64,000 nt of DNA from an uncultured archaeon (GCA_902385225.1 CABMEU010000024.1:5606-69605); one strand, 5' to 3'; shown: positions 26,381-26,426, numbered from the stretch's first letter. Translations and numbers: made by a program. The notes: generated from the letters alone by a model not told the origin.

Positions 26381-26426
26381 TTTATAAAATATACCCCAAA
26401 AACGAACACGAATACGGCAATTGACG
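26381..26426 (+). promoter_or_regulatory. 46-bp TATA plus ACGGCAATTGACG module, copy 1 (porG / leu-ilv divergent region)
   Basis: tttataaaatataccccaaaaaCGAAcacgaaTACGGCAATTGACG. The layout is identical in copies at 46944-46989 and 50847-50892. Confidence 0.5.

Follow-up and report, generated by a model that had tools for sequence, protein, structure and literature searches.

A 46-bp module occurs three times in a 64,000-nucleotide stretch of DNA from an uncultured archaeon (GCA_902385225.1, CABMEU010000024.1:5606-69605). This whole stretch is called the window below. Each copy is probably a promoter-operator unit read on the minus strand of the window, with a candidate operator for a regulator that would co-control three operons; the probability of this reading is put at roughly 0.7. 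The candidate regulator combines a helix-turn-helix (HTH) domain of the XRE type with a DRTGG-like C-terminal domain, and the family is called XRE-DRTGG here. The operons facing the three copies encode pyruvate:ferredoxin oxidoreductase, the mevalonate pathway from HMGS to IPK, and a GltD-like protein with an NAD kinase.

Three copies in one window

The three 46-nt strings were verified on the plus strand at 26381-26426, 46944-46989 and 50847-50892, and the coordinates, sequences and neighbouring genes given for them in a first-pass annotation of the same DNA are all correct. Copy 1 separates porG (25756-26289, minus) from a leuA-like gene (26764, plus). For copy 2, the neighbours are HMGS (45786-46874, minus) and the 3' end of the HMG-CoA reductase gene (47019-48398, minus). 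Copy 3 has on one side the gene for a GltD/NfnB-like Fe-S flavoprotein (49377-50726, minus), called gltD-like below, and on the other the 3' end of a gene for a periplasmic binding protein.

In the window, which has a G+C content of about 42%, the pattern CGAA-N6-TACGRCAATTGACG has exactly three exact matches. If up to three mismatches are allowed, shuffled sequence is expected to give 0.06 matches, and the observed count was reached in none of 100 shuffles. The shorter ACGRCAATTGACG, with up to two mismatches, gives 7 matches against 2.2 expected, the exact ones being the three copies only. A three-mismatch match at 2592-2615 is at chance level and lies within coding sequence, without TTCG or TATA. 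None of the remaining promoters of the window has the module.

The three copies can be aligned with no gap over the A/T box and onward to the end of the 13-mer, where their likeness stops. The ungapped layout that had been described for them is exact from CGAA to the 13-mer. It does not extend to the TATA register, which is shifted by 1 nt in copy 3, where CGAA is separated from the A/T box by 13 nt, not 14. The spacers (N8 and N13/14) and the flanks are unrelated among the copies, and particular positions are invariant. Further GGCAATT cores, listed earlier as related at 26303, 56574 and 59232, turn out to be chance matches: GRCAATTG occurs 4 times against 7 expected, and all three sites lie inside coding sequence and lack TTCG, TATA and the rest of the motif.

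Architecture of the unit

Read on the gene strand (the minus strand of the window), the order of elements is W-CGTCAATTG-Y-CG-W, N8, TTCG, a pyrimidine tract, a GAWAGG block resembling the TFB-recognition element (BRE), TTTTTAWA, and the gene. Position-specific counts were taken on 39 non-identical instances from relatives. They give W CGTCAATTG H CG W A .. C TTCG T Y TTTT. G A W A R G K TTTT W W A. The operator is a dyad-symmetric near-palindrome of 14 bp, W-CGNCAATTGNCG-W, in which a deviant base can occur in either half. The TTCG element follows 8 nt past the 12-mer at invariant spacing, and a second, weak half-site TTCGTY stands 22 bp from the first CG. GAWAGG-(K)-TTTTTAWA is found in the 39 instances and resembles the A-rich BRE and TATA box of other promoters in the window.

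In copy 1, the operator CGTCAATTGCCGTA (26413-26426; near-palindrome CGnCAATTGnCG) is conserved in the orthologous por promoters of three related loci (L004, L055 and L057). It is followed by TTCG at 26403-26406, by the pyrimidine tract and BRE-like block at 26389-26402, and by the TATA box TTTATAAA at 26381-26388, which faces porG. In copy 2, the operator CGTCAATTGTCGTA (46976-46989) has orthologues in L022, L039, L060, L071, L002 and others. Its TTCG lies at 46966-46969, and a pyrimidine tract, the BRE-like GGAAAGG (46952-46958) and the TATA box TTTTTAAA (46944-46951) occupy 46944-46965, facing HMGS. Copy 3 carries CGTCAATTGCCGTA at 50879-50892, with orthologues in L003, L026, L027, L029, L031 and others, and TTCG at 50869-50872. 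A pyrimidine tract, the BRE-like ACAAAGC (50856-50862) and the TATA box TTTTTATA (50848-50855) make up 50848-50868 and face the gltD-like gene. All of these elements are on the minus strand.

Judging from its sequence, the module is an archaeal BRE/TATA promoter read on the minus strand. On this strand, each of the three copies points at the start of a gene; transcription on the plus strand would, for copies 2 and 3, meet convergent genes at their 3' ends. In every instance, the 13-mer and the A/T box have between them a purine-rich block (GGAAAGG, ACAAAGC, AGATAGG and similar), and in the 39 counted instances a conserved G-A-W-A-R-G-K block stands between TTCG and the TATA box. No conserved purine block was found in these 39 instances on the far side of the TATA box (positions 45-52). 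Ordinary promoters of the window likewise have an A-rich BRE 5' of the TATA box in the direction of the gene. Because the polarity of the BRE determines the direction of transcription in archaea, the polarity of the block indicates a minus-strand promoter. In the relatives with the shortest leaders, the TATA box is 46 nt (L057, por) or 51 nt (L053, HMGS) from an ATG with the Shine-Dalgarno (SD) sequence GGTGA, which leaves no space for another promoter.

The tract beyond the operator is a separate matter. A G-run and then a T-run had been described past the 13-mer on the plus strand, and this is partly real: the sequence 8-17 nt past the 13-mer, ten positions, is rich in G and T. The position counts show this, on the gene strand, as an A/C-rich tract 5' of the operator (46990-47006 on the minus strand, with equivalents at 26427-26440 and 50893-50912). 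Positions -17 to -8 from the operator are depleted in G and T and often read AAAAACC(A)CCCCC, also in an Iainarchaeum locus with 63% GC (L080). The tract may act through DNA shape or halt divergent transcripts.

Conservation in relatives

The homologues of the gltD-like protein carry the names Diapherotrites or Iainarchaeum. Three loci were chosen by way of such homologues (74-80% identity) and not by the motif, and in them the module stands before both the gltD-like gene and HMGS. Their spacers are variable; variants such as CGTTAATTGACG occur, and CGAA, CGTT or CGGA follows the core.

A scan of a genome collection with the 24-mer gave 26 matches, against about 35 expected by chance from database size according to the author's estimate. 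Seventeen of the 26 are bacterial, without TATA context, and are chance matches. Six archaeal matches are complete in architecture, each an orthologue of copy 1, 2 or 3; their sources are Ca. Forterrea sp. IMS_BF and the archaea SO_2017_GW1_24, WB02no2_33_12 and ELA192. From metagenomes, a relaxed pattern retrieved 43 matches, of which about 37 are bona fide.

Altogether, about 40 instances in related Iainarchaeota contigs retain the architecture, with diverged spacers and flanks. The downstream gene, where it can be classified, is always gltD-like (60-84% identity), HMGS (80-96%) or porG (86-87%; that of L057 was recognised by its N-terminus only). Five instances fall outside firm classification, being cut by contig ends or having only a short N-terminal motif. 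Both in the three contexts of the window and in all classifiable instances, a gene start follows on the TATA side at a distance of 46-210 nt. Related sequence amounting to about 420 kb was examined for the 12-mer, and each occurrence with at most one mismatch is part of such a module.

Conservation in related genomes, proposed as a check in the first-pass annotation, is borne out among Iainarchaeota relatives, where the spacing is kept. Particular positions never vary, yet spacers and flanks have nothing in common, a pattern of selection on contacts and not of recent duplication.

Recurrence across archaeal phyla

Two further matches of the 24-mer scan are not due to chance. In Methanococcoides vulcani (L017) and in a Thermoplasmata metagenome-assembled genome (MAG; L008), CGTCAATTGYCGTA-N6-TTCG stands directly before an operon of a XRE/HTH_3 protein of about 245 residues, HMGS (54-58% identity to that of the window) and thiolase (51%).

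Two more examples come with homologues of this regulator. In Methanosarcina (L072, by way of the homologue P0155), CGACAATTGCCG-N8-TTCG-TTAGATATATATGG precedes regulator, HMGS, thiolase and DUF35 genes. In the Ca. Iainarchaeum sp. MAG of locus L080 (63% G+C, HMGS 55% identical), the regulator P0511 is the first gene of the HMGS operon. Upstream of it lies AGACATTTGACG-TAATCGGG-TTCG-TCAGATAGGAAGC-TTTTTAAA, with the N8/N13 spacing of the window itself. The 12-mer of L080 is degenerate: it has three mismatches, the left half is lost, and the TTGACG half alone is retained.

In all four lineages, the first gene of the operon encodes an uncharacterised XRE-type HTH protein with a DRTGG-like C-terminal domain. 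By the author's own count, the centres of palindrome and TATA box stand about 25 bp apart in L017 and L072, about 29 bp apart in L008 and about 36 bp apart in Iainarchaeota. Methanosarcinales and Iainarchaeota differ in this spacing by about 11 bp, or about one helical turn, and in Methanosarcinales TTCG sits at the position of the BRE. The gene order regulator-HMGS-thiolase-DUF35 is also found in Methanopyri and Korarchaeota MAGs, and thus in at least six lineages of several phyla.

The first-pass annotation had offered, as one of its two readings, a site at fixed distance upstream of BRE/TATA elements facing porG, the HMGS-to-IPK operon and gltD-like/nadK, which together would form an acetyl-CoA/NADPH regulon. 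All classifiable instances in relatives fit this reading, and it can be extended: the site recurs before HMGS operons of other archaeal phyla, beside the gene of the candidate regulator.

One more match is a side observation. A Bathyarchaeota MAG (L023, 3847-3870) has the exact 24-mer with the TTTTTATT prefix seen in Methanococcoides, 210 nt before a 180-residue open reading frame (ORF). No mevalonate gene is present near this 24-mer, which is either a chance match or a further member of the regulon.

The candidate regulator

HTH_3 is the sole Pfam detection in the candidate regulator, and sequence searches of the PDB matched only HTH domains of the Cro/C1/MBF1 type. An AlphaFold2 model of P0511, made with a 40-sequence alignment, has a mean confidence (predicted local distance difference test) of 88.7. 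In Foldseek searches, the N-terminus of the model matches Cro/C1 phage-type repressors and restriction-modification controller proteins (C-proteins). The C-terminal 130 or so residues match the DRTGG domains of 2ioj (AF1212, TM score 0.70 on the target) and 3l2b (the regulatory region of a CBS-pyrophosphatase).

The family has 259 representatives at E<=1e-10, whose names include Methanosarcinales, Methanomicrobiales, Methanopyri, Korarchaeota, Conexivisphaerales and several DPANN groups. It is present in the phylum of the window, in Ca. Iainarchaeum sp. (P0511, L080). Among loci obtained from the regulator search, L080 is the one that can be assigned to Iainarchaeota; L077-L079 cannot.

Three other proteins were considered as regulators and rejected. 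A HTH protein at 3158-3766, the only one among about 38 ORFs of the window scanned with Pfam, is divergent from grpE-dnaK. The 251-residue ORF at 45031-45786 has no Pfam or NCBIfam match and no likeness to the XRE regulator. A NikR gene beside the HMGS module of L031 goes with a ZIP transporter. The first of these, a winged-HTH protein of 202 residues on the plus strand, shares a divergent intergenic region of 151 bp with the grpE-dnaK genes, of which grpE lies at 2386-3006; a 628-residue ORF at 457-2343 is probably dnaK. The winged-HTH protein is probably a heat-shock regulator unrelated to the module.

Proposed mechanism

In the proposed mechanism, the palindrome and TTCG would together be the binding site of one dimeric transcription factor. 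If the centre of the TATA box is set at -27, the centre of the palindrome falls at about -63; these positions depend on predicted start sites. Transcription would run into porGDAB, into the gltD-like-NADK(-HMGR) genes and into the HMGS-to-IPK operon. The production of acetyl-CoA, the transfer of reducing power from ferredoxin to NADPH, and the mevalonate pathway would thus come under common control.

The factor would bind through its N-terminal XRE/Cro-type HTH domain, and the DRTGG-like C-terminal domain could be the ligand-sensing or oligomerising part. Autoregulation is expected where the gene of the factor sits directly behind the operator, as in Methanosarcinales, the Thermoplasmata MAG and the other Iainarchaeum MAG.

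The sign of the regulation can be argued in two ways. An upstream, helically phased site suggests contact with TFB/TBP, and therefore activation. The XRE family, the autoregulatory layout, TTCG at the BRE position in Methanosarcinales and the TTCGTY half-site suggest cooperative repression that is relieved by a ligand. There is a slight lean towards ligand-relieved repression.

A broader proposal is held more tentatively, at rather less than even odds. The module would be the operator of a widespread metabolite-sensing XRE-DRTGG regulator that exerts feedback control on archaeal isoprenoid synthesis. In this DPANN lineage, the regulator gene would have left the operon and the regulon would have grown to include pyruvate:ferredoxin and ferredoxin:NADP-type oxidoreductases. 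If this is true, the supply of acetyl-CoA and NADPH is coupled to lipid synthesis, and the factor is the first transcriptional regulator dedicated to the mevalonate pathway of archaea, testable in the genetically tractable Methanosarcina.

Alternative explanations

Several observations weigh against the co-control of the three operons by a XRE-DRTGG factor. A search of the 64-kb window, together with about 450 kb from related Iainarchaeota loci around these operons, found no homologue of the regulator. Homologues from Micrarchaeota and others are unlinked to HMGS and have no operator nearby. There is no recognisable palindrome before the regulator operons of Methanopyri and Korarchaeota (L075 and L076), despite a similar recognition helix. 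An operator centred at about -63 would be unusual for an archaeal repressor. The leaders of 70-100 nt are atypical of this genome, where the TATA box is usually 22-35 nt from the ATG, and a second T-rich box, conserved in the HMGS leaders, is a possible proximal promoter.

The first three of these observations would also be expected if the promoter and its upstream operator are as described and the operator is bound by a factor from outside the XRE-DRTGG family. The adjacency of the regulator to HMGS would then be coincidental or have another role. Against this stand the operator directly 5' of the regulator gene in four independent lineages, the synteny of regulator, HMGS, thiolase and DUF35 across at least six, and the 12-14-bp dyad that is the typical target of Cro/C1-type HTH dimers. 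An outside factor is thus an unlikely explanation, and binding of the predicted operator by a XRE-DRTGG factor is judged somewhat better than an even bet.

Another possibility concerns the opposite strand. The first-pass annotation had also suggested short plus-strand transcripts, or an operator overlapping their start site. In this model, the A/T box drives RNAs about 20-35 nt long, starting with ACGRCAAUUGACG and stopping at the G-run/T-run, which are either functional or by-products of divergent initiation. A TA step does lie about 26 nt from the TATA centre, where a divergent start is expected, and archaeal promoters with symmetric TATA boxes are documented to fire divergently in Thermococcus and Haloferax, with start sites about 52 bp apart (bioRxiv 10.1101/2020.01.31.928960). 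The G/T-rich tract behind the 13-mer is present in most instances and could keep such transcripts from extending antisense into the upstream gene.

However, the BRE-like block is on the wrong side for plus-strand initiation and absent from the side that would require it. Conservation ends sharply at the 13-mer, with none beyond it. The predicted RNAs fold no more stably than shuffled sequences (z +0.4 to +1.0), and neither Rfam, at gathering and E-value thresholds, nor an ARAGORN tRNA scan gave a match in the window or in the intergenic region of copy 1. In Methanosarcinales and Thermoplasmata, moreover, the TATA box is 7-11 bp nearer, which would place the 13-mer off the divergent start. The earlier plus-strand reading finds no support: such RNAs are improbable as the explanation of the module, and plus-strand transcription is at most a by-product, a divergent side effect.

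It is very improbable that no dedicated factor is involved and that the module is a strong promoter cassette (UP-like or TFB/TBP-enhancing), a leftover of a duplicated promoter or a small mobile repeat: one architecture is common to three copies in the genome, and the T and A/C tracts could work through DNA shape, but specific positions are invariant amid unrelated spacers and flanks, terminal repeats and target duplications are absent, no other promoter of the window has the module, and it is confined to one pathway across phyla.

Comparison with known systems

A close parallel in layout is the Thermococcales glycolytic motif (TGM), bound by TrmBL1/Tgr. It too is a short palindrome fixed relative to BRE/TATA before several operons of one metabolic theme, and its position relative to the TATA box decides the outcome. 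The TGM differs in sequence (TATCAC-N5-GTGATA), in its factor (a TrmB winged-HTH protein), and in lineage and pathway. The module has in addition the invariant TTCG, and its site has been seen so far only 5' of the TATA box.

Cro/C1 (XRE) repressors and the C-proteins share the HTH fold of the candidate and a dyad target of 12-14 bp. As in these systems, the factor gene lies right behind its own operator in four lineages, and the TTCGTY half-site recalls their tandem operators. The module differs in its archaeal BRE/TATA context, in the DRTGG-like C-terminal domain that replaces the usual dimerisation domains, and in a metabolic regulon instead of phage or restriction-modification functions; binding is predicted here.

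Upstream activating sites of the Ptr2/Lrp type in archaea are likewise 5' of BRE/TATA and helically phased (about 11 bp, one turn). Their sequence and protein family are unrelated, and for the module activation is one of two possible signs of regulation. Bidirectional archaeal promoters share one piece of geometry with the module, a TA step on the opposite strand about 26 nt away from the centre of the TATA box. They need no conserved 13-mer, and may explain the G/T-rich tract but not the module.

No published description was found of the motif, of a regulator or operator of the archaeal mevalonate pathway, or of the HTH-DRTGG family, in a full-text search whose coverage is incomplete, so that an earlier description is possible. 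On the comparative evidence, the module belongs to a familiar class, promoters with an operator for a transcription factor. It is a previously undescribed instance with unusually clean comparative support, and it directs attention to an uncharacterised, widespread candidate regulator for the synthesis of lipid precursors in archaea.

The transcriptional control of archaeal isoprenoid membrane-lipid synthesis is largely unknown. The analysis yields a precise 44-bp cis-element, a coherent predicted regulon of three operons (acetyl-CoA, NADPH and mevalonate) and a candidate regulator family. Because the family is also found in cultured, tractable methanogens (Methanosarcina and Methanococcoides), the hypothesis is directly testable. 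A potential use is the engineering of isoprenoid production in methanogens.

Downstream genes and leaders

All operons behind the copies are on the minus strand, and in the window the distance from TATA box to gene start is 91-121 nt. The pyruvate:ferredoxin oxidoreductase operon of copy 1 (22414-26289; Pfam POR, Fer4, POR_N/PFOR_II and TPP_enzyme_C) encodes the subunits gamma (25756-26289), delta (25352-25726), alpha (23757-24923) and beta (22414-23418).

Copy 2 is followed by a 12-gene archaeal-type mevalonate operon (36169-46874) in the order HMGS, a 251-residue unknown protein, thiolase, DUF35, a 273-residue unknown protein, GHMP kinase, UbiX-like, UbiD-like, HAD, the large and small subunits of AcnX, and IPK. 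The two unknown ORFs (45031-45786 and 42323-43144) have no Pfam or NCBIfam match. Relatives have unannotated ORFs of 271-290 residues in the same operon, after HMGS (L029) or DUF35 (L031).

The genes after copy 3 (47019-50726) are the gltD-like gene (49377-50726), a NAD-kinase-like gene (48501-49298) and HMG-CoA reductase (47019-48398). The last has its own TATA-like box in the window; in relatives, it stands directly behind the gltD-like gene.

The mechanical start of the HMGS ORF at 46874 is probably wrong. The conserved N-terminus MAGIVGWGS, with the SD sequence GGTG, starts at 46826 (minus), giving a protein of 346 residues that matches the orthologues. The second T-rich box of the HMGS leaders, GGTTTTTTATT, lies about 40 nt before the start in many orthologues, and at about 46855-46870 (minus) in the window. 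In one clade, it is preceded on its 5' side by a hairpin whose stem changes are compensatory (CCTAAC..GGTTAG, CCCAA..TTGGG, ACCAAA..TTTGGT). The box could be a proximal promoter or an oligo-T attenuator in a leader of about 95 nt.

The gltD-like leader has a small hairpin near its 5' end, AAGCG-UAUGGUGAG-CGCUU, with a SD-like GGUGA in the loop (50804-50822, minus). By inspection, the leaders of several gltD-like orthologues (L032, L043 and L046) contain a stem-(Y)UGGUGA-stem with differing stems.

A possible leucine-rich leader beside copy 1

A further observation concerns the plus strand at 26503-26660, between copy 1 and the leuA-like gene. This region, from a DPANN archaeon, resembles a Leu/Val leader-peptide attenuator of the bacterial type; a literature search for leader-peptide attenuators found bacterial examples only. 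A leaderless ORF of 23 codons (26535-26606), which encodes MNSGNFVTKTISVLVLGLVLLLE and a stop, begins about 22 nt past a TATA-like GTTTATTAAAAG. The ORF is kept in two relatives (L004 and L055), where the C-terminal LGLVLLL is invariant and the N-terminus variable.

About 35 nt past the stop of the ORF lies a conserved GGGG(TT)CTTTTTTT run, a putative oligo-T (T7) stop. In the consensus fold, the start of the ORF (CUCGG) pairs with CCGAG just 5' of the T run; there is almost no covariation among the sequences, of which there are three, all close. Downstream lies the operon leuA-leuB-leuC-leuD-ilvB-ilvN-ilvC-ilvD (26764-36148).
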